Assembly (NCBI RefSeq): GCF_024223415.1
Contig: NZ_CP100500.1
Direction: 5' to 3' (one strand)
Length of the DNA stretch: 64,000 nt
Origin: Escherichia coli
Lineage (GTDB): Bacteria > Pseudomonadota > Gammaproteobacteria > Enterobacterales > Enterobacteriaceae
The position numbers were made by a program, and so were the translations under genes. Positions 4,592-47,560 of the stretch are shown here, piece by piece. Below the pieces are notes generated by a model. The model had not been told where the DNA came from. It saw only the letters and a program-made list of their open reading frames with translations, and did not search any database. The stretch's first letter is position 1. Every line of letters begins with the position of its first letter.

Positions 4592-4667
4592 CCAAAGTAA
4601 ACCAGGCACATATCCTCCATGCTCCCGGGACAACAGAGCGCAGTTCGGGCACTACAGCCTTACTGGT

Positions 4668-4958: not shown

Positions 4959-5839
4959 GGATACCCCCTGATTACCGCCTGCCCTTATTCCCCGGGAGAC
5001 TGAGAACAGGCTGAGATATAAGTATATTTATATAATATTATATTTCGGATTATTCGCAGAATACTGAAAAAACCGGTCGGGTCAACCGCAGGAAAACAGA
5101 AAGAGCCTGTAATAACGCATAGAAACGATATTTAAAACCAGAACAACCATCAAAAACAGAACATAAAGTCACAAAAACCGTCAAAAACGACCAGGTACTG
5201 CATTTTTAACACCTTTTTTAAATTTTGGTATCTTTACAAAAAACACCACCTGAAAATCATTTATTTAATTAAATAAAGTAAATTGCTTAGCCTGATAAAT
5301 ATTGTTCTGCAACACTCCGGTTCAGGCAGAATGTATTTTCATGGCTTACCCATTCAGGCGTAAATGCGATATTCCGCACATGACAGAGACCACACAAAGA
5401 AAAACAGGCGCAGACAGCCGGATACAGGATAAATTAACACTTCACAATCCGGCATTATTACGCTACAACATTCACGGGCAACTGCCCTTGTAACGAAAAC
5501 TTCCTTAATTTGGGTATTTGTGTGCCGTACGTCTGTGGTGTACGGCTTTTTTTCATTTTTTTATAATTTCTATAAATAAAGATATAATCAATACGTATAT
5601 ACCGTCGTATAAGATCCTTCTTCACCTTTCATTAAAAAGATCCGGAACAAAACAGACGATGAGATTGTGGTACTACCAGATTTACACCCTTACTCCGGAT
5701 AATTCACAAATCCTGAAATTACGACCTTCCTCCCGTTGCCGGACTGAAACAATATGCAGACACTCTGACGGACATGTCAGCAATGCACTCGCTCTCTGCT
5801 GTACAGGTATTACACCATACTTCACCAGGAGGTCTGTTC

Positions 5840-7483
5840 ATGGATATCTGGTCACAGGACTATGATCCCGTCGGAAATATCTGGCTGTCCAGCCTGACAG
5901 CATCGCTTCCCATTCTGTTTTTTTTCTTTGCCCTGATTAAGCTGAAGCTTAAAGGCCATGTTGCTGCCACATGGACTGTCATTATCGCGCTCATCGTGGC
6001 CCTTCTTTTTTATAAGATGCCTCTCACAGCCGCACTCGCTTCCGTGCTCTATGGTTTCTTCTATGGCCTGTGGCCCATTGCCTGGATAATTATTGCCGCA
6101 GTTTTTGTTTATAAAATTTCTGTAAAAACCGGACAGTTCGATATCATTCGCGCTTCAGTGCTGTCCGTTACGCCTGATCAGCGTATTCAGATGCTGATTG
6201 TGGGGTTTGCCTTTGGTGCCTTTCTCGAAGGGGCCGCCGGTTTTGGAGCACCTGTGGCCATAACAGCAGCACTGCTCGTGGTGCTTGGGTTCAGACCACT
6301 TTACGCGGCCGGGTTGTGTCTGATCGTCAATACAGCTCCCGTGGCCTTTGGTGCGATGGGGATCCCCATTCTCGTCGCAGGCCAGGTTACCGGGCTGGAC
6401 AGCTTTGAAATCGGTCAGATGGTTGGTCGTCAGTTACCCTTCCTGACCATTATTGTGTTGTTCTGGATCATGGCAATTATGGATGGCCTGCGTGGCATTA
6501 AGGAAACCTGGCCCGCCGTTCTGGTTGCCGGAGGTTCCTTCGCCATAGCCCAGTTTCTCAGTTCCAACTTTCTGGGCCCGGAGCTCCCGGACATCATATC
6601 ATCACTGGTGTCGCTGGTTTGTCTGACGCTTTTCCTGAAACGCTGGCAGCCTGTACATATTTTTCGCTTTGACAACACCCCGTACCAGAATACGGACTCA
6701 TCACCACTGAGCCGTTCACAGGTGATACGGGCATGGTCGCCATTTCTGTTTCTGACTGCCACGGTGACACTCTGGAGTCTTCCTCCCTTTAAAACACTGT
6801 TCGCACCGGGCGGTACACTGCATGACCTGGTGATTACTGTTCCTGTGCCGTATCTTGATAAACTCATTGCACGTATGCCTCCGGTAGTCAGCGAAGCCAC
6901 TGCTTATGCCGCGGTGTTTAAGTTTGACTGGTTCTCTGCCACCGGTACCGCCATCCTGTTTGCAGCATTGCTCTCTGTGATCTGGCTGAAGATGAAACCG
7001 TCAGATGCTGTCAGCACCTTTGGCAGTACACTGAAAGAACTTGCCCTGCCCGTCTATTCCATCGGCATGGTGCTGGCTTTCGCCTTTATCTCTAATTATT
7101 CGGGGCTTTCATCCACACTTGCCCTGGCTCTGGCACAGACAGGCAGCGCCTTTACGTTCTTCTCACCGTTTCTGGGCTGGCTGGGCGTATTTCTGACGGG
7201 ATCAGATACCTCATCCAATGCATTATTTGCATCACTCCAGGCAACGGCAGCTCATCAGATCGGGGTCTCCGATATTCTGATGGTTGCCGCCAACACCACA
7301 GGGGGAGTAACCGGCAAAATGATTTCTCCACAGTCCATTGCCATCGCCTGCGCAGCAACCGGACTTGTTGGCAAAGAATCAGAACTCTTTCGTTTTACTG
7401 TTAAACACAGCCTGATCTTCACCTGTATTGTGGGAGTCATCACCTCTCTCCAGGCATGGGTATTCACCTGGATGATCCCATGA
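5840..7483 (+). CDS. L-lactate permease (LctP family), LldP paralogue
   Basis: Near-collinear with E. coli LldP from [10 protein letters not shown]; start at ATG 5840. Confidence 0.85.
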
Positions 7484-7658
7484 AATATTTGTTGTGCCGG
7501 ATCTTTTCCGGCATGATGATGTGTGTTACAGCCTCTGGCTTATAACACTCTGCAGTAGTGCTGGCTGACGTGACTGCCGGATATTCTGGTTTTCTTAAGT
7601 CACGGATATACTGACGACAGGGTTTCACATTCAATATTCAACTGACAGGTATGTTTAT

Positions 7659-8951
7659 ATGGCACACCGCTACCTGACACGACAGGATCACAGGACCTTA
7701 TCTCTGGCTGCGCTCGGAGGCGCACTTGAATTCTATGACTTCATCATTTTTGTTTTTTTCGCCGCCGTCATTGCTGAGCTCTTTTTCCCGCCGGATATAC
7801 CGGAATGGCTCCGTCAGCTCCAGGCATTTGGTATATTTGCTGCCGGGTACCTGGCACGACCTCTCGGCGGAATAATTCTGGCCCATTTTGGCGATATACT
7901 TGGGCGAAAGAAAATGTTCACCCTGAGTATTTTGCTTATGGCAGTACCGACACTTGTTATCGGTATTTTGCCAACCTACAGCTCTGTGGGTACCCTGGCT
8001 CCTGTGCTGCTTCTTCTGATGCGTCTGCTTCAGGGCGCAGCGATTGGCGGTGAAGTGCCCGGTGCCTGGGTTTTTGTTGCTGAGCATGTACCGGAGCGCC
8101 GAACCGGTATTGCATGCGGAACACTGACAGCAGGTTTAACCGCCGGGATCCTGCTTGGTTCAGTGGTTGCCACACTTGTCAATTCAGTATTGTCTCAGGA
8201 TATTGTTTACGATTACGGCTGGCGATTCCCCTTCCTTCTTGGTGGTGTTTTTGGCCTGGCAGCAATGTACCTGCGCCGCTGGCTGGAGGAAACTCCGGTA
8301 TTTCTGGAAATGAAAGCCAGAAAAAAACTGGCTCAGGAATTACCGGTAAAAGCTGTCGTTTTAAGACATAAAAAAGCTGTTGTGATTTCCATGCTGTTGA
8401 CATGGCTGATATCCGCAGGGATTATTGTGGTGATACTGATGGCACCGGTCTGGTTACAGAAACAGTATGACTTTTCGCCGACAGTCACCTTACAGGCTAA
8501 CAGCATTGCAACTATTATGCTGAGTCTGGGATGCCTGCTGGCCGGTATGGCCATTGATTCTTTTGGTGCCGGAAAAACCTTTATATCAGGCAGTATTCTG
8601 CTTGGATGTTCAGGATGGCTGTTCTATCACACTGTCGGTGAGTATCCTGAAATGTTGTTCTGGCTGTATGGGCTAGCGGGATTCAGTGTGGGCATTGTCG
8701 GGGCCGTCCCTTATGTTCTCGTGCGTATTTTCCCCGCAGAGGTCAGGTTTACCGGCATTTCATTCTCTTACAATGTCGCTTATGCAGTGGTGGGGGGACT
8801 GACTCCTGTTGTGGTCACGATGTTAACGGAAATCTCCCCGATGGCTCCAGCATGGTATGTTATGCTGTTATCACTTGTGGGATCAGGACTGGGAATATGG
8901 TTCTGCAGGGATCCCCGTCTTTTTATCTGTCACGCAGACAAAGACAAATAA
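7659..8951 (+). CDS. MFS transporter, metabolite:H+ symporter family
   Basis: 12-TM-like hydrophobic profile with MFS motifs (GDILGRKK). Confidence 0.8.
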   Translation: MAHRYLTRQDHRTLSLAALGGALEFYDFIIFVFFAAVIAELFFPPDIPEWLRQLQAFGIFAAGYLARPLGGIILAHFGDILGRKKMFTLSILLMAVPTLVIGILPTYSSVGTLAPVLLLLMRLLQGAAIGGEVPGAWVFVAEHVPERRTGIACGTLTAGLTAGILLGSVVATLVNSVLSQDIVYDYGWRFPFLLGGVFGLAAMYLRRWLEETPVFLEMKARKKLAQELPVKAVVLRHKKAVVISMLLTWLISAGIIVVILMAPVWLQKQYDFSPTVTLQANSIATIMLSLGCLLAGMAIDSFGAGKTFISGSILLGCSGWLFYHTVGEYPEMLFWLYGLAGFSVGIVGAVPYVLVRIFPAEVRFTGISFSYNVAYAVVGGLTPVVVTMLTEISPMAPAWYVMLLSLVGSGLGIWFCRDPRLFICHADKDK

Positions 8952-8992
8952 TGTTTCACCGTTATATAACGGTATCATTCAGTTTTTAAAAA

Positions 8993-9016
8993 TGGCGACA
9001 GGTTAACCTGTCGCCA
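8993..9016. terminator. GC-rich hairpin (TGGCGACAGG-TTAA-CCTGTCGCCA) after the MFS gene
   Basis: Perfect 10-bp inverted repeat; T-run lies on the minus-strand side. Confidence 0.4.
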
Positions 9017-9585
9017 TCCGGTCAGATGCTCACCAGACCGCGCCCCCCATCAGTCTCCATATCCTCCCCCTTGCCCTGCCGGATGATAGCGCCACGCGAC
9101 ATCACCAGGTAGTGGTCCGCCGTAATGTTCCGGTGAAATCGTCCTGACACGTTTCCGGGCTCGTTATCAGCGGTTTTTGCGAATGATCGCCGCCCTGCGA
9201 TGGTTGATTTATTTTATTGCGCCCCGGCGTCTGCCTTGCCAGGTACCGGAGGCGGGCTCTGAAGTACTGAGTAGGGTGAGCGCGTCAGGCCACGAAGTAC
9301 TGACACGGGAGTTTGTGGCAGGCAGTGAAGTCCTGACCAGGGTAAGGGAGGGGCTGACGTGCATGCCCTGACTGTCAGCCAGGGCGCGTGGTGACTGACT
9401 TTCTCAATAACCCGCTGTCAGGCGCTCAACGCCCGACAGCAGGCCATGGCCCGGTGTGCAAAGACCTGACGGCAGGCCTTGTGTCACCCGGATAAGGTAA
9501 ATCCCTCAAGAGGCAGCAACTCAGCCAGTCGGTCCTCAGGCCACTCCGGCAGGCGCGTCAGTACGTCCGTCAGCCAGGCATGTTG

Positions 9586-11300
9586 CAAAATCGCATCGTG
9601 TTCGATCGCCGATTCGCATCGTACTCGATCGCTGATTCGCATTGTCCGATCATTGATTCGCATCCTGCAGTCACTCCTGGAATTAACTTTTCTGCATAGT
9701 CTCTACTGCTGAATTTTCTTCTCAGTAGAGGTCTTGATGGCTAAAAAGAAAATCTCCCGGAGTTCTATGGAAACCTGTTTAAAAATTCTCCAACTTAAGT
9801 TCGAGCAGCATCAGACAAACCGGACTATCGCACTTACACTGAACATCAGTCCCTCGACTGTTTCCGATGTATTGTCCCGCTTTAAGAACACGTCAATATC
9901 GTGGCCTTTGCCTGAATCGATGACAACTCAACGTCTTGAGGTGCTTATCTTTCCTGGCAAGCAAGCCCCGGAAATGACGCCGGCACTGCCTGACTGGCTC
10001 TACATTGATACCGAACTACGTCGTGTGGGAGTCACTCGTCAGCTCTTATGGATGGAATACAAACATCAGGCTGGTGAATATGCTCTGGGATACTCACAGT
10101 TCTGTCGTCGTTATCTGCACTGGAAAAAAAGCGTGCGTTACTCCATGCGGCAGGAACATCGTGCTGGTGAAAAACTCTTTATCGACTTCTGTGGTCCTAC
10201 AGTCCCTGTTGTTAATCCGGAAACCGGAGAAGAACGCAGAGTGGCCATCTTTGTAGCCGTGATGGGAGCATCTAACTATACCTATGTTGAAGCGTGCGAA
10301 GGTCAGGATCTGATGTCGTGGCTAAACGCCAACAGCCGATGTCTGACCTTCCTTGGTGGTGTACCAAAACTGCTGATCCCGGATAACCTTAAAAGTGCTG
10401 TCAAAAAAGTCGATCGCTACGAACCGGTCATCAATGAGAGTTACCAAGCATTCGCAGAGCACTACAATACAGTGATACTCCCAGCAAGACCAAGAAAACC
10501 AAAGGATAAAGCGAAAGCCGAAACGGCTGTACTTATCGTCGAACGATGGCTGCTTGCCCGCATTCGCAACGAGACCTTCTTTACACTCAGGAGCCTGAAC
10601 AGTCGTCTACGCGAGTTGTTGGTAGAGCTGAATAACCGTCCCATGAAAGGATACGGCAACCAGACGCGTGCAGAGCGTTTTGCCCTGCTGGATGCCCCTG
10701 CATTATCAGCCCTGCCAGTATCAGAGTATGAGTTCGCTGAATACAAAACGGTGAAAGTTGCACCTGATTACCATGTTGAATACGCCCACCACTGGTACTC
10801 AGTACCTCATGAACTGATCGGACAACGGTTATCCCTGAAAGCCACTCAGACAGTGATCCAACTCTGGCATCAGGGGCAATGCGTGGCACAACATCCGCGC
10901 AGCCTCCATGAGTACAAGCACACGACCAACCCTCTACACATGCCTGCAGCACATCAGGCACACAGCAGATGGACACCGGAAAGTCTTCAGGAAGCAGCCA
11001 GAAAGATAGATCCTTATACAGCAATGACAGTGGATAGCATGCTGAACAGTAAACGTCATCCTGAACAGGCTTACCGGACAGTCCTGGGGCTGCTGAGCCT
11101 GAAAAAACACTATGGTCGTGAGCGTCTGGAAAAAGCCTGTCATGTTGCCCGGGAGTGCAGAACGTCGGAAAGAAGGTTCATCGAAAACCTTCTGCGTAAT
11201 AACAGGGAAAACCTTTCCCTCCGGAAAAAGAGAGGCAGACGGAGGGAAACGTATCAAAAATCCAGTTAATACGCGTGATGACTGCCTGCATCACGTTTTC
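9586..11300 (+). mobile_element. IS21-family element remnant (istA only; boundaries approximate)
   Basis: Tandem ~21-bp repeats at 9586-9670 upstream of istA; element truncated before istB. Confidence 0.45.
9734..11269 (+). CDS. istA: IS21-family transposase IstA (cognate istB absent)
   Basis: N-terminal HTH plus catalytic core typical of IstA; no IstB-like ORF follows. Confidence 0.8.
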   Translation: MMAKKKISRSSMETCLKILQLKFEQHQTNRTIALTLNISPSTVSDVLSRFKNTSISWPLPESMTTQRLEVLIFPGKQAPEMTPALPDWLYIDTELRRVGVTRQLLWMEYKHQAGEYALGYSQFCRRYLHWKKSVRYSMRQEHRAGEKLFIDFCGPTVPVVNPETGEERRVAIFVAVMGASNYTYVEACEGQDLMSWLNANSRCLTFLGGVPKLLIPDNLKSAVKKVDRYEPVINESYQAFAEHYNTVILPARPRKPKDKAKAETAVLIVERWLLARIRNETFFTLRSLNSRLRELLVELNNRPMKGYGNQTRAERFALLDAPALSALPVSEYEFAEYKTVKVAPDYHVEYAHHWYSVPHELIGQRLSLKATQTVIQLWHQGQCVAQHPRSLHEYKHTTNPLHMPAAHQAHSRWTPESLQEAARKIDPYTAMTVDSMLNSKRHPEQAYRTVLGLLSLKKHYGRERLEKACHVARECRTSERRFIENLLRNNRENLSLRKKRGRRRETYQKSS

Positions 11301-11395: not shown

Positions 11396-12391
11396 TCAGT
11401 GGCTGATTTTTTTCAGCTGTTCTTCACTCAGCCCCGTAATTTTCATGATTGTCTGGAAACCCATCCCTTCAGCCAGCATATTACGCGCGGTTTCCAGTTT
11501 GCCTTCCAGTTGTCCTTCGAGTCGACCTTCGGCACGGCCTTCCATTCTGCCTTCCATTCTGCCTTCCAGCTTACCACGCTCCATACCCTGCGCCATGCCC
11601 AGCGCAATGCCTTCCTCGCGTCCGCTCTGCTTCAGTTGTTCAGCCAGTGTCATTATGTTGCCCTCGTGCTGTGGCAGCCGCTCCGCCAGCGTCTGCAAAA
11701 ACCTTACCGTCACATGTTCACTGCCGTTCAGCAGATAGTGGAACAGAACCTGCGCCAGCTCTTCATTCAGCGAAGTCTGTATCAGCTGAACCAGCCTGTC
11801 CATCTGCAGCATGATGTCGCGGCTGCGGCTGTGTTTCATCAGCAGCGTCAGTGCCCCCATACGACGGTGCTGCATTATTTCATCGTCATCCAGTACCGTC
11901 ACGTCCACCAGGTGGAACGGTCTGGTGTAGATTTTAGCAGCAAGTTCCGGATTTCTGAAACACTCCAGCCAGTTCATGCTGTACGGGTACGGACTCCGCT
12001 CACCGTGGTAGAATAACAGCGGGATCACCAGCGGCAGCTCATGGTGCTGTTCAAAGTGACGCTGCATCGCCGCCACCGCATATCTGAGCATCCTGAACGC
12101 CATAAACGCGTTTTCCGTGCTCTGGTGTTCCGCGAGGCAATAAATATACCCCTCCTCACCGCTGACGGTCTTCATGCTGAACAGCGCATCGCACGCATAC
12201 TGTTTCAGATCCTGGTCCACAAAGGTACAGGGCTCCAGCCGCAGCGTTGACAGATCACACAGCTGCCGGTATTCCGCCGGAAGATGCAGTTCAACAAAAT
12301 CACGGGCCACCTCTGCGGAGGCCATAAACGCCCTGAAGGCAGCATCATGCGGCGTGGGGGTATTTTTCTCTTTCCTGCTGCTCACCGTCAT
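11396..12391 (-). CDS. Rpn-family recombination-promoting nuclease (YhgA-like putative transposase)
   Basis: Rpn/YhgA-like N-terminus and the characteristic C-terminal EGR(M/L)EG repeat tail; hairpin 11368-11393 just downstream. Confidence 0.75.
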   Translation of the reverse strand: MTVSSRKEKNTPTPHDAAFRAFMASAEVARDFVELHLPAEYRQLCDLSTLRLEPCTFVDQDLKQYACDALFSMKTVSGEEGYIYCLAEHQSTENAFMAFRMLRYAVAAMQRHFEQHHELPLVIPLLFYHGERSPYPYSMNWLECFRNPELAAKIYTRPFHLVDVTVLDDDEIMQHRRMGALTLLMKHSRSRDIMLQMDRLVQLIQTSLNEELAQVLFHYLLNGSEHVTVRFLQTLAERLPQHEGNIMTLAEQLKQSGREEGIALGMAQGMERGKLEGRMEGRMEGRAEGRLEGQLEGKLETARNMLAEGMGFQTIMKITGLSEEQLKKISH

Positions 12392-26084: not shown

Positions 26085-26303
26085 GTGGTATCAAAAATGA
26101 AAACAAAACAGGACTGGTTATTTCAGTTACGGCGATGCTCCAGTATTGAAACCCTGGAAAAAGTTATTGAGAAAAATCATTACTGCCTGACCCCATCAGA
26201 AATGGAAACATTCAATTCAGCGGCAGATCACCGGCTTGCAGAACTTAAAATGAATAAGCTTTATGACAAAATTCCGCCGTCAGTCTGGAAATATGTTTAT
26301 TAA
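26085..26303 (+). CDS. Hha/YmoA-family nucleoid-associated modulator
   Basis: 72 aa, near-collinear with Hha (…LRRC…[11 protein letters not shown]…[20 protein letters not shown]…). Confidence 0.8.
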
Positions 26304-26585: not shown

Positions 26586-26774
26586 TCACTTCTTCGCAAG
26601 AGTACAACTGAGTTCAGGTATTTTGAGCTGAACACGCACTTTTTTCTGCGCCGGAAAAAATTTACGGTATTCCTCTTCCTTCAGCACTTCACCGGTATTG
26701 CGCCGCCAGATAAATGGTATGCCATCACTTTTCTGAATAACTGCATTAATCTGATAACAGCTCATTTTTCTCAC
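26586..26774 (-). CDS. Hypothetical small protein (62 aa)
   Basis: ORF only; overlaps the 3' end of the GrlA-like gene. Confidence 0.25.
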   Translation of the reverse strand: MRKMSCYQINAVIQKSDGIPFIWRRNTGEVLKEEEYRKFFPAQKKVRVQLKIPELSCTLAKK

Positions 26775-27195
26775 TTTGTTCCGGCGGCATTTCTCCTGCC
26801 CGACGCGAACACATCCAGCGACGCAGAGCCGTCAGCGTGTCTTCTTCCTGAACGCTGCAGGATTTTGGTGTGGCTGGCTGTGGAGCGGGTTGCCGGTAAC
26901 GTATCCCTGAGGCTGGCACAGACGTCACGCCCGGAGATACTGACAGGATCCGGATGGCACGGATTTTCTGACGGTGCGCATCAATCAGGTTAAGTACTTC
27001 GCTGTCAATGAACTCCCGCGCATCGCGGGTAATGAAAAGCAGAATATCGTGTGCCTCTGCCTGGCTGATGCCGAATGCACGCGCAACACAGATTTCGGTC
27101 AGCAATACTTTTTCTCTCAATCCCCACATGGCAACAGCGACATGCAGCGGAGCATGCTCAAAATCACAGACAATTCCCGGTAACATTTTTCTCAT
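26746..27195 (-). CDS. CaiF/GrlA-family transcriptional regulator
   Basis: PLHVAVAMWGLREKVLLTEICVARAFGIS fits the CaiF/GrlA winged-helix pattern. Confidence 0.5.
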   Translation of the reverse strand: MRKMLPGIVCDFEHAPLHVAVAMWGLREKVLLTEICVARAFGISQAEAHDILLFITRDAREFIDSEVLNLIDAHRQKIRAIRILSVSPGVTSVPASGIRYRQPAPQPATPKSCSVQEEDTLTALRRWMCSRRAGEMPPEQSEKNELLSD

Positions 27196-27603
27196 GCCAT
27201 CATCACCACACTAATCCCGCATGACTGGTAATACTTTAACTTCACACGCCATGGACGACAATATGCTGTAAAATCGCATCGTGCCGATCACTGATTCGCA
27301 TCGCATCATCCAGCACATTTACTTTTCCCGGTGTTGAAAGGAAGTATTTGTGGCAGCTTGTTGAAAATACAACTCCACCGGTCAATCCCCAGGATATAAA
27401 GACAGCAACGATAATGCAGGCCAGCCCCGGAGAATAACCTGCAAGAAAAAATGATCCCCCACCCGGTATTAAGGCTGTATGGGCAGGTTAACACGGTGAT
27501 TACTGTCAGTTAATACCATCACGCCGGCCCCAAAAACCTGTGGGCAAGGGGATGTCGTGCGGATCACTGAGCAAATTCATCGGAATGCGCAGCAAAGCAC
27601 TCC

Positions 27604-29955
27604 TCAGAATAACCCCCCTTCACCATCAGCCACAATCCTGTATCCCATCGCCTTATAACCCCGCTGGCGTTTATCCCACATTCTGAGCAGCACAGGATAC
27701 GCTTTATCCACAAAATCAATGATCCTGACATCGCTTTTACCGGTATACTGTCTGTGCAGACGCCCTGCATACTGCTGTAACGTCCCTTTCCATGACACCG
27801 GCATCGCCAGAATCAGCGTATCCAGCGGTGGGTGGTCAAATCCCTCACCAATAAGTTTACCGGTTGACAACAGAATGCGGGGAGAATCCTGAGGAAGCGC
27901 ATTTAACTCAGAAATCAGCATTGTACGCTTTTTTTTCGATAACCGGCCATGAAGCACAAAGGGTGACAGGTTCAGTGAATGCATTACTGATGCTATATCA
28001 TCCAGATGCTCTTTTCGTTCAGTCAGTACCAGAACTTTACGTCCCTGCGCGAATGCCTTCATGGCTTCTTCAGCTATCGCCACAGTCCTGTCATGATCAA
28101 GCGCAATTTCTCTGAAAATATCCTGGATCCCCGCATCCGATGGTAAATGTCCGGATGTAAAACGGAAACGGAGCTGCACTTCCAGATTATGCGGACTTTC
28201 CTTCGGGCTGGCCGCTGTGTGACGAAGGGCACCACAGTACATAAAAATGATGGGATGCAGACCATCCCGTCGGACAGGCGTTGCCGTCAGTCCCAAAAGA
28301 TATCTGGCATTCGTTTCCTTCAGAACAGCAGAAAATGAAAACGCTCCAGCATGATGGCACTCATCAACTATGACTTGCCCGTAATTCCTGACCACAGGTG
28401 CAACTTTGCCATGCCTGAACAGAGACTGCACAACAGCAATATCAATATTGCCAGAGGGGTTATGTTTGCCCCCTCCGATAATACCAATACCGTCACTGGT
28501 CTGCAGAAATACCCCAAGCCGCTCCTGCCATTGCTTTAATAACTCAGTCCGGTGTACCAGTACAAGTGTATTAACTCTCCGTCGTGCAATCACAGCCGCG
28601 GCGGTAACCGTCTTACCAAAAGCCGTTGGCGCACAAAGTACACCAGAATCATAACGGAGCAATACCGAAACAGCCTCTTCCTGATCCGCTCTGAGGTTTC
28701 CCGTGAACACAGCATGACATTCTGTACCTGCAAATCGTTCATCGATGATTTCTGCAGCAATATTGTTGTCACTGAGGAAGGATAATGCGCTGTCCAGACA
28801 TCCACGGGGTAACGCAATGTGTTGCGGATAATTTTCCGCACAACCTGTAACCCGGGGTTTATTCCAGACAGACATTCTCATGGCCTGAGCCTTATAAAAC
28901 ACAGGATTAGGAAACGCAGCCAGTCGAATAAGCCGGTTGGCCAGCGGCTGAGGTAATTGCGCTTTTTCGAAATAGATCTGGTTTGCCAGCGTGATTCTCA
29001 GCGGCTCAGCAACAGAAACCGTCAGTTTGTTTTCTGATGATGTTTTCCACGGCGTGCTCAGGTCTTCGTCGGTAAAGTTCACATCCAGTGGATGAATACT
29101 TCCTGTAGCCCGTAATATTGTCGGTTCTATATCCTGCACATTCATCGGGATCACCGATGCCAGGAATGCCCACTGATCAGGATAAGGCTGAAAATTCATA
29201 TCAACAAAAACACTGCCTCCCGATTCACGCGGTCTTTTTTGCAGAGGTAACGCGATGAGATTGCCGAATCCCCCTTTTGGCATGGTATCCTGATTAGGAA
29301 ATAATCGGTCATAAGAACTCAACCGCAGTTGCCGGGAACGGCTACACGTATGGCTGATAACGGCTGTCCCCAGTCGGCGTGCATCACGGGCCGAAACCCG
29401 GGAAGCAAAAAATATCCAGACATGCGCCCCCTGACGTGAGCGGGATATTTCCAGCGCTGCGGGTATCCCCAGCTCATCACAGGATCGCATGAATGCGGAT
29501 GCATCCTTCTGCCATTCAGCATCATCAAAATCAACAGCCAGAAAATAACAGGAATCGTCTTCCAGCAGCGGATATACCCCGACTGTATGGTAGCCTGCGA
29601 GATGACGGTAAATGACAGGATCGGATACAGGTAGCAACTGACGGTGTGCGCAGTCACCGCATTTTATCCCGGGCTTACCGCAGATTCCCGGCTTCCATTC
29701 GTTAGCACAGGCCGGCGAATACCCTGATTTACCACTGACCTGACTTTCCCAGCGAAGGGCCCATACATCATCACGCCCACGAAACAACCGACGAAATAAT
29801 GAAACCTTCTGTTCAGCAGATAATGCGGAAACATGATGTACAGAACGCTGCGGTTTACGTCGCCATTCAATCCCGTGAGCTTCAAGTAATGAGGCCAGAC
29901 GGGCATTTTCTGCCCTCAGTGCAGCTAATTCGTCGTTATCAGATTGACACACCAT
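27604..29955 (-). CDS. Putative primase-polymerase / SF2 (DEAD/DEAH-type) helicase fusion protein
   Basis: C-terminal helicase motifs I AFGKT, II DECHH, III TAT, VI QYAGRLHR; N-terminal zinc ribbon CGKPGIKCGDCAHRQ and acidic DFDD motif. Confidence 0.75.
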   Translation of the reverse strand: MVCQSDNDELAALRAENARLASLLEAHGIEWRRKPQRSVHHVSALSAEQKVSLFRRLFRGRDDVWALRWESQVSGKSGYSPACANEWKPGICGKPGIKCGDCAHRQLLPVSDPVIYRHLAGYHTVGVYPLLEDDSCYFLAVDFDDAEWQKDASAFMRSCDELGIPAALEISRSRQGAHVWIFFASRVSARDARRLGTAVISHTCSRSRQLRLSSYDRLFPNQDTMPKGGFGNLIALPLQKRPRESGGSVFVDMNFQPYPDQWAFLASVIPMNVQDIEPTILRATGSIHPLDVNFTDEDLSTPWKTSSENKLTVSVAEPLRITLANQIYFEKAQLPQPLANRLIRLAAFPNPVFYKAQAMRMSVWNKPRVTGCAENYPQHIALPRGCLDSALSFLSDNNIAAEIIDERFAGTECHAVFTGNLRADQEEAVSVLLRYDSGVLCAPTAFGKTVTAAAVIARRRVNTLVLVHRTELLKQWQERLGVFLQTSDGIGIIGGGKHNPSGNIDIAVVQSLFRHGKVAPVVRNYGQVIVDECHHAGAFSFSAVLKETNARYLLGLTATPVRRDGLHPIIFMYCGALRHTAASPKESPHNLEVQLRFRFTSGHLPSDAGIQDIFREIALDHDRTVAIAEEAMKAFAQGRKVLVLTERKEHLDDIASVMHSLNLSPFVLHGRLSKKKRTMLISELNALPQDSPRILLSTGKLIGEGFDHPPLDTLILAMPVSWKGTLQQYAGRLHRQYTGKSDVRIIDFVDKAYPVLLRMWDKRQRGYKAMGYRIVADGEGGLF

Positions 29956-31628: not shown

Positions 31629-33062
31629 TCAGAGGTCAAAGTTAGGTGCGACATACCACGTTTTATCGTCCATAAGCTGTACAACTCTGTTTTGCTCATA
31701 CAGTAAATCCAGTAACCAGTTGAGTTTATCTTTTTTACGGAAACGATTCGGGCCACGCTGTAAAATGTCATTTTTTTTCATACAGGGAACCCCCTTCTCA
31801 ATGCAATAGCTTTTTATCCAGTTAAAAAGTTCAAGCTCCTCCGGAATGAGTCGCATAGTTACGGTCTGGGCAGAGTTTTCAAACGTTAACGGACTGGATA
31901 ACCGAATATACTCATTACCGTACCATATTGCTAATTCTCTCGCCATTTCAGCTGTGTAGGGGGAAATGTCACCTTCCTCACCGCTGACATGGTGAATAAG
32001 CCCAGCCAGTCTTGCCATATACTCTGCATTTTTAGCAGCATATTCTCTGAAGTCTCTTAAAGGCCCCAGAACCGCCATCTTCGATTCCACATCGTTGTAA
32101 TAGTCCGTCCAGATTCTGGCTGCCTGAGGAGAAAAGTGAAGGCAACGTCGCTCTCCCCTCATAGCCAGGCTTTCATCAATAAGTTCATTGATCCTCTTGT
32201 CAAATAACTCCTGATACTGTGATGAATAATTATCTCCGGTTATTATCCTTGTCCCCTGCGTTGATGTTGGTTGACACATCAAAAACCGTGCATGATGTCC
32301 TGATGTCTTCACCAGTTCTTTTTTTCGTGTACAAAAACCTTTGTGGTAAACATCAGGCTGAATCATCACCGATATCGTCAGTCTTGGGTCCTTCAAAAAA
32401 ATCCCGGGAGATGATTTCCTGTCGATGAAAAGGGAACTACCATCCCATAAAGAGTTAAGTATTCCCAGTTTGCTCATTGCCCGGCTGTCAAAAATCACCC
32501 CGCCCTCACTGGATACAAGAGCAAAAGAGCGATTGCTGTCGGAATAATATTTAAACATTCCCTCTGTCGTCGTATCATTAAAAATTGTCCGATTTATCTG
32601 CGGTGGAACAGGACAACTATTCAGATGCATTCTGAGCTCTGATTCTGTTGCTTCATACTCTTTACCGGCACGAATCTCTTTATGAAGTTTTGACTCCAGT
32701 GCCTTTTGTTTTTGCTCCCATATTTCCTTTTCTGCACTGTAATTCTCAACCAGTTTCGCATATTCTTCCGCAAGAGTTTCATCCCTGAGATAAAATGCTT
32801 TCATAAAAACTTTATCCACGGTCGTTTTCCTTTCGCCGGAATCAGCCAGAATCATAGCGTAAAGATTAGAGGGGCCACGTAAATTACCAGGTCTGCACAC
32901 ATCAATCTGATTCTGACAGGCAACTGACACCGCTGTTAATGCTGCTGTTGCAACCAGAGCCCCGGGCGCCTGTGTATTTTGCTGAGTTTCAATTATTGCA
33001 TTTCTCACCAGAGATGTTAATGCATTTATCGGAAAAGGGGCTTCCTGTTCAAGTAAGGACAT
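31629..33062 (-). CDS. DUF3987-type protein (YfjI-like)
   Basis: Position and composition match CP4-57 YfjI; start set at internal ATG 33062 (GAGG RBS); hairpin 31576-31606 downstream. Confidence 0.7.
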   Translation of the reverse strand: MSLLEQEAPFPINALTSLVRNAIIETQQNTQAPGALVATAALTAVSVACQNQIDVCRPGNLRGPSNLYAMILADSGERKTTVDKVFMKAFYLRDETLAEEYAKLVENYSAEKEIWEQKQKALESKLHKEIRAGKEYEATESELRMHLNSCPVPPQINRTIFNDTTTEGMFKYYSDSNRSFALVSSEGGVIFDSRAMSKLGILNSLWDGSSLFIDRKSSPGIFLKDPRLTISVMIQPDVYHKGFCTRKKELVKTSGHHARFLMCQPTSTQGTRIITGDNYSSQYQELFDKRINELIDESLAMRGERRCLHFSPQAARIWTDYYNDVESKMAVLGPLRDFREYAAKNAEYMARLAGLIHHVSGEEGDISPYTAEMARELAIWYGNEYIRLSSPLTFENSAQTVTMRLIPEELELFNWIKSYCIEKGVPCMKKNDILQRGPNRFRKKDKLNWLLDLLYEQNRVVQLMDDKTWYVAPNFDL

Positions 33063-33321
33063 AAATACCTCAATTTTAGTTAATAAATCAGTAAAGTAGC
33101 AGATATTCCCGCTATAATAGCCAAAATAGCTGCTATGCATAGCCGATATGTTCTGAAAAATACAGTAATCGGGCATACCTGATGTTGAACAAAACGATAA
33201 GGTTGATTCAATTCAGCCTGTATTATTAGCTACGTAACATCATTCACATTGCTCACTCCTGACATCTTCTGATGATTATTTCAACGACGCCTTATTCATG
33301 GTCGTTTTCCTTTTTCATGAA

Positions 33322-33543
33322 TCAAAAAACAACCATAGTGTAAATATTCATGGGTTCACGAAAATTATCTAATCTGCACACATTAGTCAGATCCTGACGG
33401 GAAATTGACATATCTGTTAATACTGGCATTGCCATCAGAGTCAGAGGTACTTGTTTATTATATTGAGCTTTAATCATTGCCTTTCCCATCATTAATGATC
33501 GCGCATATACTGAATACGGCGTATCCGGTTTTATGTAAGACAT
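33322..33543 (-). pseudogene. Truncated tandem duplicate of the YfjI-like N-terminus (73 aa)
   Basis: DNA and protein alignable with the first ~90 codons of 31629-33062 (…VCR..N.R.P.N.Y.M…), then frame break and stop. Confidence 0.5.
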
Positions 33544-33718
33544 AAATGCTTCCTTTGTCGTAATGCGTGTCGGTTATAGCAGCAATTACCGCTACAATAG
33601 CGACAATAGCTGCTCTTTCAACAATGAATGCTGGAAATTCTGTTTATCAATTAAACTTCTGGCTAAATTATTCTTATGCTTCTTTTTCCTCCTGAGGTGA
33701 TCACGTGATGACAAAAAC

Positions 33719-37122: not shown

Positions 37123-38325
37123 TTATTTATTCATAATCTGAGACATCACATAATCCGCCCATGCCTGCATCATCGGTACACGCTGCTCCAGTAGATCAGT
37201 ACGATGATATGCCGCCTCAACCTTATTTTTCAGCGTATGAGCGAGCGCCCTTTCAGCCAGATCCCGCGAATACCCCTGCTCACTACACCAGTCCCTGAAT
37301 GTTGAACGAAAACCATGTGCCGTGGCGACTCGCCCCGGAATATCACTGACGGCTTTCTTTTTACGCAGAAAACTGGTCAACACCATATCTGAAAGGATCT
37401 GCTGCTTTCTGGGTGAAGGAAACACCAGTTCATCATGCAGACCACGTATATTTTCCAGAATGTAAATAGCCTGTCGGGATAAAGGAACACGATGCTGTAC
37501 CCTGGCTTTCATTCTTTCTGCTGGTATCGTCCATATCTGCTTATGAAAATCAATTTCAGTCCAGCGCATTCCCCTGGCTTCACCCGAGCGGGTTGCTGTA
37601 AGTATCACCATTAATAACAATGCGCGGGTAACATTATAGGGTTCATCGGTATACACACTGGTCGCCACAAAAAGCGGTAACTGCCTCCATGGCATTGCGG
37701 GTTGGTGTTCATCACGTCCTCTTGTCTGCTGGGGAAGCAAATGATCAACCACATCCACAGGATTTGCCACACAAAAACCATGTGCCCATCCCCACTGCAT
37801 AACAACATGAATGCGCTGTTTAACCCGGCTTGCCGTTTCTGACAAAGTTAACCAGACTGGCCGCAGTGTTTCTGCCACGTCCGCAGCCGTAATCGAATCC
37901 AGCGTTTTCGCTCCCAGTTGAGGAAAGGCGTAATTCTCAAGCGTCGATAACCACTGCCGGACATGCTTTGGATTTTCCCATCCAGGAGACAGTTCTGCAT
38001 GTACACGTCTGGCTGCATCGGCAAATGTTGGGATAACAACTTTTTCAGCCTCAGCCTTTTTAATCTCCAGAGGATCATCACCAGCAGCAAGTTGCTCTCG
38101 CATTATCCGGGCAGTACGTGCAGCTTCAGCAATGCTGATCTCAGGGTAAGTTCCCAATCCAGCATTACGCCTTTTTTGTGTCACCGGACTTACATAACGA
38201 AAAACCCATTTACCCCGACCCTTTACTGAAGAAGGATGAAGGGTCAGTCCTGTAATTCCCCCATGGGGCAATGGTTTGTCATCAGGTTTGATATGCCTTG
38301 CTTTCGTATCCGTCAATACTGCCAT
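37123..38325 (-). CDS. int: Tyrosine-type site-specific integrase (P4/CP4-57 IntA-like)
   Basis: IntA-like N-terminus and C-terminal catalytic region (…HGFRSTFRDW…, …LAHTLKNKVEAAYHR…). Confidence 0.9.
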   Translation of the reverse strand: MAVLTDTKARHIKPDDKPLPHGGITGLTLHPSSVKGRGKWVFRYVSPVTQKRRNAGLGTYPEISIAEAARTARIMREQLAAGDDPLEIKKAEAEKVVIPTFADAARRVHAELSPGWENPKHVRQWLSTLENYAFPQLGAKTLDSITAADVAETLRPVWLTLSETASRVKQRIHVVMQWGWAHGFCVANPVDVVDHLLPQQTRGRDEHQPAMPWRQLPLFVATSVYTDEPYNVTRALLLMVILTATRSGEARGMRWTEIDFHKQIWTIPAERMKARVQHRVPLSRQAIYILENIRGLHDELVFPSPRKQQILSDMVLTSFLRKKKAVSDIPGRVATAHGFRSTFRDWCSEQGYSRDLAERALAHTLKNKVEAAYHRTDLLEQRVPMMQAWADYVMSQIMNK

Positions 38326-38543: not shown

Positions 38544-38692
38544 CATTTTATCTGCCTGTACGGCAGTGAACATGGTGGGCGGGTGGAGTATGTTACCAGT
38601 GAATTTCTAAGCTGCCTGTACGGCAGTGAACGTTTGCTGCAACCGCTAGCCAAGACGGTAGGTTTTTCTAAGCTGCCTGTACGGCAGTGAAC
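38544..38692 (-). CRISPR. Orphan type I-F CRISPR mini-array (3 repeats, 2 spacers, no cas genes in window)
   Basis: Two exact copies of TTTCTAAGCTGCCTGTACGGCAGTGAAC (38604-38631, 38665-38692) plus a degenerate copy ending at 38571; spacers of 32-33 bp. Confidence 0.8.
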
Positions 38693-38903: not shown

Positions 38904-41180
38904 TTAATGCGCTGCTTCCGCCTTGTGCTTTTGTGCACTCTGAAATCCGTAAGTCAGCTCATTTTTCTCTTTATCCAGCGCGACGGTGACCTGACCGCCG
39001 TCCACCAGCGAACCAAACAGCAGTTCGTTGGCAAGCGGTTTTTTCAGGTTGTCCTGGATGACACGCGCCATCGGACGAGCGCCCATTGCCCGGTCGTAAC
39101 CTTTCTCGGCCAGCCAGTTACGCGCTTCCTGGCTCACTTCCAGAGAAACACCTTTCTGATCCAGCTGAACCTGCAACTCGACGATGAATTTATCCACCAC
39201 CTGATGGATCACGTCAGTTGACAGATGATCGAACCAGATAATGTTGTCGAGACGGTTACGGAATTCCGGTGTAAAGATCTTCTTGATCTCTTCCATCGCA
39301 TCGGTGCTGTTATCCTGGTGGATAAGACCAATGGATTTGCGCTCAGTTTCCCGTACCCCGGCGTTAGTGGTCATCACCAGTACCACGTTACGGAAGTCCG
39401 CTTTGCGTCCGTTGTTATCGGTCAGCGTACCGTTGTCCATCACCTGCAACAGAATATTGAACACGTCCGGATGCGCTTTCTCGATTTCGTCCAGCAGCAG
39501 CACCGCATGTGGATGCTTGATGACCGCATCAGTCAGCAAACCGCCCTGATCAAAACCAACGTATCCCGGAGGCGCACCAATCAGACGGCTGACGGTATGG
39601 CGTTCCATATACTCGGACATATCAAAGCGCAGAAGCTCAATGCCCAAAGCTTTCGAAAGCTGTACCGTCACCTCTGTTTTCCCGACCCCGGTAGGACCGG
39701 CAAACAGGAACGAACCGACCGGTTTATGTTCGTGACCTAAACCTGCACGCGCCATCTTAATGGCTTCAGTCAGCGCCTCAATGGCTTTATCCTGACCGAA
39801 GACCAGCATTTTCAGGCGATCGCCGAGGTTTTTCAGGGTATCGCGGTCACTCTGAGAAACACTCTTCTCTGGAATGCGTGCAATACGGGCCACCACGGAC
39901 TCAATATCCGCCACATTAACGGTTTTCTTGCGTTTGCTTACCGGCATCAGGCGTGCGCGAGCGCCCGCTTCGTCGATAACATCAATCGCTTTATCCGGCA
40001 GATGACGATCGTTAATGTATTTCACCGCCAGCTCTACCGCCGCACGCACCGCTTTTGCGGTATAACGCACGTCGTGGTGCGCTTCATACTTCGGTTTCAG
40101 GCCATTGATGATTTGAACAGTTTCTTCGATCGACGGTTCAGTAATATCAATTTTCTGGAAGCGACGCGCCAGAGCACGGTCTTTCTCGAAAATGTTGCTG
40201 AACTCCTGATAGGTTGTCGAACCAATTACGCGAATTTTACCGCTGGAGAGCAACGGTTTGATTAGGTTAGCCGCATCGACCTGACCACCAGACGCTGCAC
40301 CCGCACCGATAATGGTGTGGATCTCATCAATAAACAGGATGCTGTTAGTGTCCTGCTCCAGCTGCTTGAGCAACGCTTTAAAACGTTTTTCAAAGTCGCC
40401 GCGATATTTTGTGCCCGCTAACAGAGAACCGATATCGAGAGAGTAAATCGTACAGTCAGCCATCACTTCCGGCACATCGCCCTGAACAATTCGCCAGGCA
40501 AGACCTTCTGCAATCGCGGTTTTACCGACACCAGATTCCCCCACTAGCAGCGGGTTGTTTTTACGGCGACGGCAGAGAACCTGAATAGCACGCTCCAGCT
40601 CCTTCTCACGACCAATCAGTGGGTCGATTCCGCCCACGCGCGCAAGCTGATTCAGGTTCGTCGTGAAATTCTCCATACGTTCCTCCCCACCAGCTTGTTC
40701 TTCGCTGTTTGGCTGGCTGCCAGGATCAGAAGACTGTGTCGGCTCGTCTTTACGCGTGCCATGAGAGATAAAGTTCACCACATCGAGACGGCTGACTTCA
40801 TGTTTACGCAACAGATATGCCGCCTGCGACTCCTGTTCGCTAAAGATAGCGACCAGAACGTTTGCACCGGTAACCTCATTGCGACCGGAGGACTGGACAT
40901 GGAAGACCGCACGTTGCAGTACACGCTGAAAACTCAGCGTCGGCTGTGTGTCGCGCTCCTCTTCACTGGCAGGCAGAACGGGTGTGGTTTGTTCAATAAA
41001 GGCTTCCAGTTCCTGACGGAGCGCAACCAAATCCACAGAACACGCTTCCAGCGCCTCCCGGGCAGATGGGTTACTGAGCAGCGCCAGTAACAAGTGCTCG
41101 ACGGTCATAAACTCATGACGGTGCTCGCGCGCTCTGGCGAAAGCCATATTTAAACTGAGTTCCAGTTCTTGATTGAGCAT
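38904..41180 (-). CDS. clpA: ATP-dependent Clp protease ATP-binding subunit ClpA
   Basis: Matches E. coli ClpA throughout as recalled ([24 protein letters not shown]…); two AAA+ modules. Confidence 0.95.
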
Positions 41181-41210
41181 AGGCACCTCCCCCAATTTTT
41201 ATGCCTGCAT

Positions 41211-41531: not shown

Positions 41532-41615
41532 TGTCAGTTATCATCTTCGGTTACGGTTATCGGCAGAACGCCCTGCCGCTGACAAGAGCTTATTTGCCTG
41601 ACCAATCTACTCCAC

Positions 41616-41637
41616 ATGATAGATAACTATCATTTAT
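41616..41637. repeat. Left attachment-site direct repeat ATGATAGATAACTATCATTTAT
   Basis: Matches the right repeat at 52086-52107 at 20 of 22 positions. Confidence 0.6.
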
Positions 41638-42554
41638 ATCATTTAGTTAATTAGTCTTTATTTTTCATTATGTTGCAAATAACAAGCCCGTCAAAAACAG
41701 TGATATTAACTACACCATTAACTACACCGCTTCACGAACAATATCGAACAACCGCGAACAAAGATCAACACGCTTTAATCATTATCATTTTCCGGCTATC
41801 CGTCATGAAGCTGGTGGATGATCTGCGTGGTGATTTCCACCATTCAGAGCAGGTGCGGTCATCATGACCATGCCATAACAAAAACCCCATATTCGTGGTT
41901 TTTCTGTGTCGGGGCTATTCTGCTGTTGCCGTGCTGGTGGATATTCTCCGGTATGCGGCTCCCCATATCGGCATCAGGCCCACCAGCGTGAAGCGTTTTT
42001 CATTTTTCGCGGGTATAAAAAATCGATGGGGCGGGCAGTCCTGAAGACGTCAGGGTACAGAGATTTGACCCGCCCCTCCCTGTGCATGAGCACAATAAGT
42101 AACCGAAGGCGGAATTCCGCCCTCGGTACTTACATATGAGAAACGATATTTCTTCCACCGATACCCTTTATTTGGGTATCGCGAGTAAGCCCCAAAATCT
42201 GGGTGTTACTCTTACTACCCAAACTACGGGTAGTTTCCGTAGTTTCATGGTCGAGTTGCAAATCTGCAACTCACCCACCAGCCAGCGCAATGTCGCATTA
42301 TCAGTCCTCAGATGTGAGGGATGTAGCCAGCTTTTCCCCCAGTGGGGATTATCCAGTTACCGACGGTTTAACCGCCTGTACCAGCACAACGAAAGAATTT
42401 GCGGGTAGCTTTAAACTACTCACAACATCCCATCTTACAGGCCGTGCCTTTCTAACTTTTTACAATGCAATAAGTCAGGTAACGCTATGCGTTCCACCGT
42501 GTACACCGCGCCAGTAAAACCCCCGGATTCGTGGTTTTCCTGAATATCAGGAAT

Positions 42555-45811: not shown

Positions 45812-47560
45812 CTATAAAAACGCGTCGCAGTCGTCTGTTGTTGTCACGTTGGTTTGCGTAACCCCTTTAATCCTGCGCGTTATATATTCATGTCCGTAAA
45901 CTTTCGCCGCTGGCTTCATGGCCTTGCTGAACTCAGCCACGTTCAGCGGTTTGCTCCTGCCTGCATACGCCATAAACGCCAGATAGACGCGGTAAAGGCT
46001 GTTTCTGGTCGTGTACTTCACGGAATCGCCACCGCCCCCCATCATCAGGCCACGTGCTTCCTCCAGAAAATTCAGGAACTGGCAAAACTCAATAACCGGA
46101 TCCGTTTGCTGCTTTATCGCCAGTGCTTCATCACCGTCACGCTGTTCCAGTAGTAAAGCCCGCGCCTTTTCAGGGTCTGCAAAGTTCGCCAGTAATCGGC
46201 GGATAATGACGGGGATTTCAGCCGCAATCCTTTCCGGTAGCTCCCTGTCTTTTTCAGCCTCACTGACGATATTGTCGAAACGAAAAATCACGCGACGACG
46301 TGCCACACCTCCGGCCCGTTCGGTGAATATCATCGGGTTATTGTTGGTCGCCAGCACCACCGCCCTGATTACAGCCGTGAAACGCTTTTCGTATTTCGGG
46401 TTAATTTCCACGGGGTCACCGCCCGTGATTTTCTTGATGCCCGTTCCTTCGCCTGTATATTTCGGCTGGTCTGCCAGGACGATAAGACGACTCCCGACAA
46501 CCTGCGCACGCCCACCAGCATCATCAAGCGATGTCATCTCAGCGCTTACCGTGTTCTGTTTCCCTGCCAGAAGGCTGGCTATGTGCGTGAATGTACTTTT
46601 ACCGCTCCCGCCGTCTCCGGTGGCCTCAATAAACATCTGCCAGTCGTACCGGTTCGCCATAATCATGTACAGCGCGGCACATATACGCATCATCTTGCGC
46701 GGGTCTTTTCCGGCTGCGTGCTCAAGCCATTTATGAAAGTTTGGCGCGTTATCGCGGATGTTCTCCCCAGGTGCTGGTGGCGTGTACTCAATGCCATTGT
46801 GCGTGGTGATCCAGTTCTCCGGCGTGTGCGGGGAAAATTCCCCCGTTTTCAGGTCAAGCGCACCATTGGCGAACGGCAGCAAATCGCCGGACGGCTCGCC
46901 CATTGGTTCGGCAATAACTTTTAACGCTTCCACGGCGTTATTGATTACGCGCTTGCTGAAAGTGGCCCTGTGCTCTGAATAGATCGCCACCATTTCGCGG
47001 CTCAGTTCCATTGTGCTGACCGGACACCATACCCCGCCGCGCCATACGTGAACGATTTCACTTTCCGGATGCACACAAACGCCATCAAATCGACCAGCAA
47101 GCATCTGTGCGCGCTCACTGTCTGCCATTTGTGCCAGTTGCGTATTTTTCTGCTCCGGCATGGTAAGCCCTGCAGCAATATTTTCACGCTCAGCATTCAG
47201 ATAACGCCGCCAGTTTTCACACTTCTGACCGTGCATTCCTTCGGGGTAAAAATTTGCGTCCTGTACGCCAGCCGCCGCCAGCTTCTGACCAATCGCCTTT
47301 ATCATTACTGGCGCAAGATATCCGGCCCTGAATATACGCACGGATTTTCTGCCTTCCGGCACAATTTGCAGCTTATCCAGTTCGGATAACTGCTGCTCCC
47401 CAAGCCACACAGGAGGCTCATTATCTCCGGCCATACGCGCGTCATGTTCCTGCCATTGTTTCGCGTGTGCCCAGGCATCACTACCCGCAAAAATAATGAC
47501 TTCAGTTCCTTTGTGTTTTATGCCGCGTGACTGCAGTTTTACGTTCGGTGCCAGTTTCAT
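45812..47560 (-). CDS. Replication protein with SF3-type helicase domain (P4-alpha/D5-like primase C-terminal region)
   Basis: Walker A ATGDGGSGKST and Walker B-like RLIVLAD in the C-terminal half. Confidence 0.8.
   Translation of the reverse strand: MKLAPNVKLQSRGIKHKGTEVIIFAGSDAWAHAKQWQEHDARMAGDNEPPVWLGEQQLSELDKLQIVPEGRKSVRIFRAGYLAPVMIKAIGQKLAAAGVQDANFYPEGMHGQKCENWRRYLNAERENIAAGLTMPEQKNTQLAQMADSERAQMLAGRFDGVCVHPESEIVHVWRGGVWCPVSTMELSREMVAIYSEHRATFSKRVINNAVEALKVIAEPMGEPSGDLLPFANGALDLKTGEFSPHTPENWITTHNGIEYTPPAPGENIRDNAPNFHKWLEHAAGKDPRKMMRICAALYMIMANRYDWQMFIEATGDGGSGKSTFTHIASLLAGKQNTVSAEMTSLDDAGGRAQVVGSRLIVLADQPKYTGEGTGIKKITGGDPVEINPKYEKRFTAVIRAVVLATNNNPMIFTERAGGVARRRVIFRFDNIVSEAEKDRELPERIAAEIPVIIRRLLANFADPEKARALLLEQRDGDEALAIKQQTDPVIEFCQFLNFLEEARGLMMGGGGDSVKYTTRNSLYRVYLAFMAYAGRSKPLNVAEFSKAMKPAAKVYGHEYITRRIKGVTQTNVTTTDDCDAFL

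Follow-up and report, generated by a model that had tools for sequence, protein, structure and literature searches.

What do four intergenic sites, scattered over 64,000 nucleotides of Escherichia coli DNA (the whole stretch analysed here, referred to as the window), have in common? The original prediction, made from the sequence by eye, had described a segment of about 65 bp at 27535-27600 as homologous to 3170-3260, and another of about 45 bp at 27264-27310 as homologous to tandem units at 9586-9670, and had suggested that this dispersed repeat family might represent recombination sites or the termini of miniature elements. The repeats are where they had been placed, to within a few bases. 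Repeat detection within the 64-kb window pairs 3215-3251 with 27555-27591 (89% identity across 37 nt), and groups the tandem ~22-nt units at 9599-9664 (starts at 9602, 9625 and 9646) with 27284-27302 (79-95% identity). The significance of these similarities was evaluated by comparing local alignment scores with those of 1000 dinucleotide shuffles, none of which reached the observed score in any of three comparisons: 3150-3270 with 27500-27620 (z = 18), 27250-27330 with 9570-9700 (z = 10.7), and 9570-9700 with the reverse complement of 3150-3270 (z = 10). Since the last of these matches is between opposite strands, the two apparent families are a single one, present in opposite orientations.

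The same conclusion can be drawn from exact patterns. The 16-mer CGATCACTGATTCGCA, with at most 3 mismatches, occurs six times in the window (plus strand at 9603, 9626, 9647 and 27285; minus strand at 3195 and 3218) against an expectation of 0.59, and none of 100 shuffles reached six. Two left termini (IRL) with the sequence TGYAAAATCGCATCGTG start at 9584 and 27267, and two right termini (IRR) with the sequence CATCGGAATGCGCA end at 3251 and 27591. A further 19-mer, CATCCCCTTACCCACAAGT, has two minus-strand occurrences, one without mismatches at 3173-3191 and one with 2 mismatches at 27536-27554, against 0.02 expected. The possibility that the similarity reflects chance, or a ubiquitous intergenic motif of the REP/BIME type, draws on nothing else than the shortness of the segments, and we assign it a negligible probability: chance is contradicted by the shuffle statistics, and all six units in the 64 kb lie within the ends of insertion sequences (IS), whereas REP/BIME sequences are short imperfect palindromes found outside mobile elements in hundreds of copies per enterobacterial genome. 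In E. coli genomes matches were found only at IS-related loci, in a small minority of genomes, and Rfam and tRNA scans returned no Rfam family and no tRNA gene at the four sites. A scan of a 298-Gb genome collection with the 17-mer TGYAAAATCGCATCGTG yielded 67 matches, against ~69 estimated by chance, the pattern being too short for this purpose; the sole enterobacterial match (Leclercia, L050) was in an unrelated sequence context without an IS21-type unit downstream, and such a unit was absent from all the matched loci.

The identity of the repeats follows from their arrangement with respect to a transposase gene. The relevant features are:

3192-3251, plus strand: copy A, a solo IRR that ends in the terminus ...CATCGGAATGCGCA and contains two ~22-bp units with a spacing of 23 bp (cores 3195-3210 and 3218-3233)

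9584-9670, plus strand: copy B, an IRL whose terminus, TGCAAAATCGCATCGTG, is accompanied by three ~22-bp units in direct repeat, with cores at 9603, 9626 and 9647 (23 and then 21 bp apart)

9734-11269, plus strand: istA open reading frame, coding for an IS21-family transposase (NCBIfam NF033546, Pfam)

27267-27303, plus strand: left part of copy C, an IRL stub with the terminus TGTAAAATCGCATCGTG and the single unit CCGATCACTGATTCGCATCG

27555-27591, plus strand: right part of copy C, an IRR stub with one degenerate unit, TCGTGCGGATCACTGAGCAAAT, and the terminus CATCGGAATGCGCA

In IS21-family elements the gene for the AAA+ helper IstB lies directly downstream of istA, and the element is flanked by target-site duplications of 4-8 bp. 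The istA product of the window scores 287.8 bits with NCBIfam NF033546 (cutoff 160), contains the Pfam domains rve and Mu-transpos_C_2, and is 74% identical to ISSso4-type IstA over residues 12-496. The closest annotated relatives of this copy are ISSso4-family elements on plasmids of E. coli, Shigella and Salmonella (72-75% nucleotide identity). One of them (L002) is complete, with istA, istB, both ends and the duplication CCAGAC at both flanks. In alignments, 9584-9670 is collinear with the IRL of this element (TGCAAAATGGCATCTGA and three GATC-containing units, followed by istA), and 3192-3251 with its IRR (two units, followed by ...GAGCGGAATACGCA); this unit-for-unit match of both ends to a complete element identifies the repeats as IS21-family ends. 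The resemblance to the ISSso4 family thus extends to an IRL that precedes istA, with a TGCAAAAT... terminus and three GATC-containing ~22-bp units, and to a two-unit IRR ending in ...GGAAT(A/G)CGCA; the window differs in its DNA sequence, to the extent given above, and in having a truncated istA copy without istB and IRR. The units in the window ends are spaced 21-23 bp, and the termini are of the TG...CA type (TGC/TGT... and ...GCA). The ends of IS21-family elements likewise carry direct repeats 23 bp apart, L1/L2 and R1/R2, and a terminal CA, as described for IS21 and IS5376 (PMC10122671); the IRL of the window has three units rather than two, and the relation to IS21 itself holds at the family level only. 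The ~22-bp GATC units are the multiple direct repeats of the terminal inverted repeats, which in IS21-family elements serve IstA for synapsis and cutting of the ends (5'-TG...CA-3'); by homology, IstA would be expected to bind the units of the window.

A different reading of the same arrays is that they are protein-binding sites belonging to the island itself (iterons, att-type sites of an integrase, or operator arrays) rather than transposon ends. In its favour are the 22-bp units that stand three in tandem just ahead of a gene (9603-9664), and the position of the copies at module borders; however, the downstream gene is istA, complete IS21-family elements on unrelated plasmids show the same collinear arrangement, the integrases are 10-25 kb away from the repeats, and the units occur in both orientations together with TG...CA termini. 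We regard this reading as very improbable. The recombination sites that had been envisaged are not supported either. The 22-bp repeats, and a C-terminal domain of the kind found in Mu transposase, could also suggest an element of the Tn7/Tn5053 type, which was considered and rejected: NCBIfam assigns the protein to IstA, and the complete relatives have istA-istB, without tnsA/C or tniB/Q. Assigning the 27.2-kb region to the end of a CP4-type prophage, on the basis of weak matches next to cbtA-like genes, leaves the repeats unexplained.

Homology is observed directly for the ends, the transposase and a transposase pseudogene described below, as are the truncations, and on this basis we hold with high confidence that what is left at the four sites derives from three or more copies of a single ISSso4-related IS21-family IS, all oriented alike, together with scraps of a Tn5-like element. 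Judged from its DNA identity to the annotated relatives compared, the IS21-like element appears to be a distinct, unnamed IS species. The feature itself, left by an undescribed ISSso4-like element, is ordinary IS debris.

None of the three copies is complete. Copy B (9584 to ~11222) retains a complete IRL, with its units directly upstream of istA, and most of istA. Both protein and DNA alignments show that homology with IstA stops at about residue 496 (~nt 11222), and that the last ~15 codons are foreign. Downstream of istA there is neither istB nor an IRR, the next gene being that of an Rpn nuclease (11396-12391, minus strand); since the complete relatives have istB, we read its absence as truncation and not as evidence that the element belongs elsewhere. 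The IRR stub of copy C (27555-27591) is one 23-bp unit shorter than the IRR of copy A. There is no target-site duplication at copy C (AATATGC at the left edge, GCAAAGC at the right edge), and the ends of copies A and B are unpaired; absent duplications fit fossil or recombined copies. An IstA with 100% identity to that of the window is present in an E. coli protein cluster, and the two contigs read (2/2) share the truncated context. In a collection of 5.8 billion proteins the IstA next in similarity reaches only 77% identity, and no intact copy of this IS species was found there. On both counts, the species turned up only as a fossil. We infer that the copies decayed in place by deletion and that all are now immobile, considering the lack of istB and of target duplications and the single unit at each end of copy C. 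For the latter copy immobility would also be expected by analogy with IS5376, whose IstA requires two complete repeats per end for integration (PMC10122671). RefSeq carries no annotation of these IS ends in the strains examined.

The segment of about 65 bp that had been matched between 3170-3260 and 27535-27600 is indeed homologous (z = 18), but it is not one repeat: its first ~19 bp belong to a different element, of which the window contains two remnants:

3167-3191, minus strand: 25-bp remnant of a Tn5-type element of the IS4 family, consisting of the 19-bp terminal repeat CATCCCCTTACCCACAAGT (3173-3191) and the inner bases TGAAAG

27304-27554, plus strand: 3' fragment of a Tn5-type transposase gene, a pseudogene, with the right 19-bp terminal repeat at 27536-27554

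At both sites the 19-bp terminal repeat directly abuts an IS21 unit, and it is this adjacency in copies A and C that generates the ~65-bp homology. The segment is therefore a composite of 19 bp of Tn5-like terminal repeat and 37-60 bp of IS21-like IRR, in which the 19-bp parts are similar because the two opposite ends of the element are inverted repeats of each other. The notion of repeats shared between four sites was thus correct, while the two supposed families resolve into the left and right ends of one IS plus a Tn5-like 19-bp end. On this explanation, copies A and C had each been invaded by a Tn5-type IS4-family element. The assignment of the second remnant derives from E. coli loci with the annotation 'IS4 family transposase', to which 27308-27555 is 72% identical in DNA, and from the translation of 27306-27554, which corresponds to the last ~83 codons of the gene, with two in-frame stops, and aligns by eye with the C-terminus of a 471-aa relative (P0124). 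Full-length relatives (470-482 aa) contain the domains Tnp_DNA_bind, DDE_Tnp_1 and Dimer_Tnp_Tn5 and match NCBIfam NF033590; the stop codon of the transposase is inside the 19-bp terminal repeat ACYTGTGGGYAAGGGGATG.

The 19-bp terminal repeat is common to the copies in E. coli GF60 and 55989, in another E. coli contig (L076) and in E. coli C5. In GF60 (L074) and 55989 (L075) the 19-mer is followed by TGAAAT and then by the start of the transposase, which makes it the left end of the element. By comparison, 3167-3191 is most likely also a left end, an assignment that rests on six bases (TGAAAG versus TGAAAT), and 27536-27554 is the right end. At the junction 27303/27304 the IRL unit of copy C ends at the canonical position of Tn5-like insertion, with GATC 18 nt upstream. 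What follows, in place of the left terminal repeat, is transposase 3' sequence, so that the deletion endpoint falls ~0-4 nt from the tip of the element; we count this endpoint against the explanation that we favour.

The likeness of this element to IS50/Tn5 is seen in its relatives, which share the three transposase domains, 19-bp terminal repeats, a stop codon inside the right one, and 9-bp duplications; the nested 19-mer resembles the outside end of IS50 at 13 of 19 positions. It differs in that its ends begin with 5'-CA and not 5'-CT, and in that its clade shows a sharply defined target; in the window the element is reduced to the 25-bp scrap and the 251-bp pseudogene fragment.

Insertions of Tn5-like elements into IS21-family ends are found well beyond the window. 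The cases observed are:

L076/L077 (E. coli contig): IS21-type IRL units, Tn5-like IS, rest of the IRL, istA and istB, with the perfect 9-bp duplication ATAACATCG

E. coli C5: the same IS as in L076 (99.9% nucleotide identity), inserted in an ISSso4-type IRL with L1 on one side and L2 on the other, and oriented opposite to istA

E. marmotae pEM148: Tn5-like insertion at the end of L3, followed by istA

GF60: Tn5-like insertion after L1

55989: Tn5-like insertion after L2

Copies A and C of the window: Tn5-like insertion in the IRR

L081: Tn5-like insertion with the perfect 9-bp duplication TATGTGGCT

The position of the insertions with respect to the units is remarkably constant. At five loci (L076, L079, L080, L081, L083) each flank has a GATC at a distance of exactly 18 nt from the terminal repeat, and at five to seven others, among them GF60, 55989, L078, L084 and window position 3191, one flank does; at window position 27554 the corresponding tetranucleotide is mutated to GCTC, and in two decayed copies the GATC is 17 nt away. 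GATCs at 18 nt on the flanks imply an empty target of the form GATC-N5-(9 bp)-N5-GATC, with cores 23 bp apart, which is the spacing of adjacent IS21 repeats. A single ancestral composite, from which all IS21-unit/Tn5-like junctions would descend, can be rejected as the only source of these arrangements because the same Tn5-like IS lies in hosts that are distant from each other (between the IstA of L076 and that of the window, which is ISSso4-like, identity is only 47%), the insertions occupy different units, and they have their own 9-bp duplications.

These observations suggest, tentatively and with chances that in our estimate fall a little short of even, that a clade of Tn5-like elements specifically targets IS21-family repeat arrays, midway between GATC cores, in either orientation, in IRL or IRR, and across hosts whose IstAs are 47% identical. 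What is recognized could be the two GATCs, further sequence of the unit, DNA shape, bound IstA, or the state of Dam methylation. The preference has its limits: more distant relatives, at 42% and 37% identity, are found in unrelated DNA and not in IS21 ends, with 9-bp duplications of the ordinary kind, and in a metagenome scan with the terminal repeat 8-9 of 47 unique flanks were in IS21 ends, most elements being elsewhere. In a lineage from bog metagenomes the same IS occupies different places in one IS21-type terminal inverted repeat, following unit 1 in L138, unit 3 in L121 and unit 5 in L101.

Some precedent exists for nesting of this kind. The ends of Tn4430 are the target of IS231A. This is the nearest known precedent: IS231A, too, is an IS4-family element with a defined site in the terminal repeats of another transposon; in the present case, in contrast, the host is an IS21-family repeat array and insertion takes place halfway between two GATC cores with a 23-bp spacing. 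The insertion specificity of IS231A is cited in PMC2266710. Targeting of IS21-family elements by the IS4 family was not found described in the literature searched. If such targeting is real, an IS clade would have its landing pad, with single-base precision, in the array of repeats to which the transposase of another IS family binds, a "safe-haven" strategy of landing in DNA that the host does not need. It would also provide a natural Tn5-type transposase with a strict symmetric target, useful for target-capture studies, and a route to hybrid elements with borrowed ends. In the window, the features themselves are ordinary mobile-DNA debris, and the recurrent phase-exact nesting is a modestly interesting lead.

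An architecture in which a Tn5-like IS lies between two IS21 ends is found at L124 and L083, and in decayed form at 27267-27591 of the window. At L124 (positions 930-2695; JGI metagenome Ga0302319_10065823) a complete Tn5-like IS of 1508 bp is located between perfect 129-bp inverted copies of an IS21-type terminal repeat, which consists of TGCGTATTC... and five GATC units; the arrangement may represent a hybrid that has borrowed its ends, or else an artefact in the assembly of repeats. Hybrid units would presumably arise by recombination between IRL and IRR copies, or by insertion into an IS21-derived miniature element, and units with this architecture might ride on IstAB too.

This raises the question of whether the 325 bp at 27267-27591 are a functional element of the MITE type, mobilized in trans by IstA/IstB, with the other sites as its relatives. 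The segment has IRL and IRR termini in the correct inverted orientation, 325 bp apart, and its architecture recurs with a complete Tn5-like element at L083 and, with perfect inverted flanks, at L124. MITEs, however, have both termini, no transposase, a target duplication and multiple dispersed copies, and in this instance there is no flanking target duplication, no second copy in the window, and no occurrence of the structure in any of 5426 complete E. coli genomes (0/5426). Each end has one unit, that of the IRR with a mutated GATC core, against the two needed by the IstA of IS5376 (PMC10122671). We consider this possibility quite improbable. The earlier suggestion of miniature element termini therefore stands insofar as these are termini of mobile elements, left and right, but not as regards the behaviour of a miniature element.

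If the sites are the remains of three IS21-like copies invaded by Tn5-like elements, their location remains to be related to the organization of the region. The window is a mosaic accessory region adjoining clpA/clpS and macAB, and all copies lie, as had been noticed, at borders between functional blocks:

Seam 1: between an aromatic amino acid permease and the lldD-lldP-MFS block

Seam 2: between MFS plus an IS66 fragment and the Rpn/YfjJ block (and metabolic cluster)

Seam 3: between Hha plus a 149-aa open reading frame and an AEP-TOTE primase-helicase

What had been described as a dispersed repeat family can now be annotated as three fossil IS21-family copies and two fossil Tn5-like copies at the seams of a rare island. 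The region 1500-5000, including the solo IRR, is present with at least 99.8% identity in 11 of 5426 complete E. coli genomes; in the same 11 genomes homology continues through the IRL and breaks at about 9742, at the start of istA, beyond which one sister strain has an ISEc23 insertion and another a deletion. It is plausible but unproven, on circumstantial evidence, that IS21-like insertions, and possibly recombination between copies, helped assemble the modules of the island.

A more specific form of this idea is that the IS21-like copies are arms resembling those of a composite transposon, for example around the 6.3-kb lldD-lldP-MFS block (3252-9583), and that the module was moved by cointegration or recombination of the IS21 type. 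An IRR flanks this block on the left and an IRL on the right, with the same orientation; the three copies all point one way, the borders of the modules fall at their positions, and the conservation in the 11 genomes runs across the block and through the IRL. On the other hand, no target duplications bracket any such unit, the copies are too decayed for a test, and fragments of IS66 and IS3 are also present at these seams. We consider this origin possible but rather unlikely; it complements, and does not exclude, the derivation of the repeats from decayed IS21-like copies. A larger unit of 18 kb, from the IRL at 9584 to the IRR at 27591, was rejected for lack of a matching target duplication.

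Several other features of the region were noted in the course of this analysis. The 100 bp to the left of the IRL of copy B (9484-9583) are annotated in sister strains (L073, L072) as the truncated end of an IS66-family/'transposase domain-containing' gene, and it appears that copy B landed in another IS. To the left of the remnant at 27267 there are a gene for an Hha-family modulator (26085-26303; NCBIfam PRK10945, 121.5 bits) and, just before the remnant, the open reading frame of 149 aa (26746-27195), which has no family match. To its right, 27604-29955 (minus strand) codes for a 783-aa protein with AEP-TOTE primase and ResIII/DEAD helicase domains (the 'TOTE conflict system' domain); at the DNA level, copies in E. 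coli O157:H7 EDL933 match it with 87% identity, and the stop codon is 12 bp from the terminus of the IS21-like IRR.

ARAGORN found no tRNA or tmRNA gene in the window (1-64000). Two tyrosine integrase genes, at 37123-38325 and 50681-51919, both on the minus strand, suggest the presence of integrated elements. Between the first of these and clpA (38904-41195), three 28-nt repeats with a period of 60-61 bp (38544-38692), two of which match Rfam CRISPR-DR4 (RF01317, 50.1 bits, minus strand), form an orphan mini CRISPR array with two spacers and no cas genes nearby. Direct repeats ~10.3 kb apart, at 41609-41761 and 51943-52107 (ATTAACTACACCATTRACTACACC... with a 29-nt ACTCCACATGATAGATAACTATCATTTAT-like segment), bracket an element that lies inserted between clpS and macB and carries the second integrase and a D5_N primase-like gene (45812-47560); such repeats could be duplications, of att type or regulatory, that belong to a satellite-like island. 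Finally, the segments 32799-33134 and 33279-33614, which are 480 bp apart and 74-84% similar, comprise the 5' end of a DUF3987 gene (31629-33176, minus strand) and its upstream region, and their similarity points to a partial tandem duplication.
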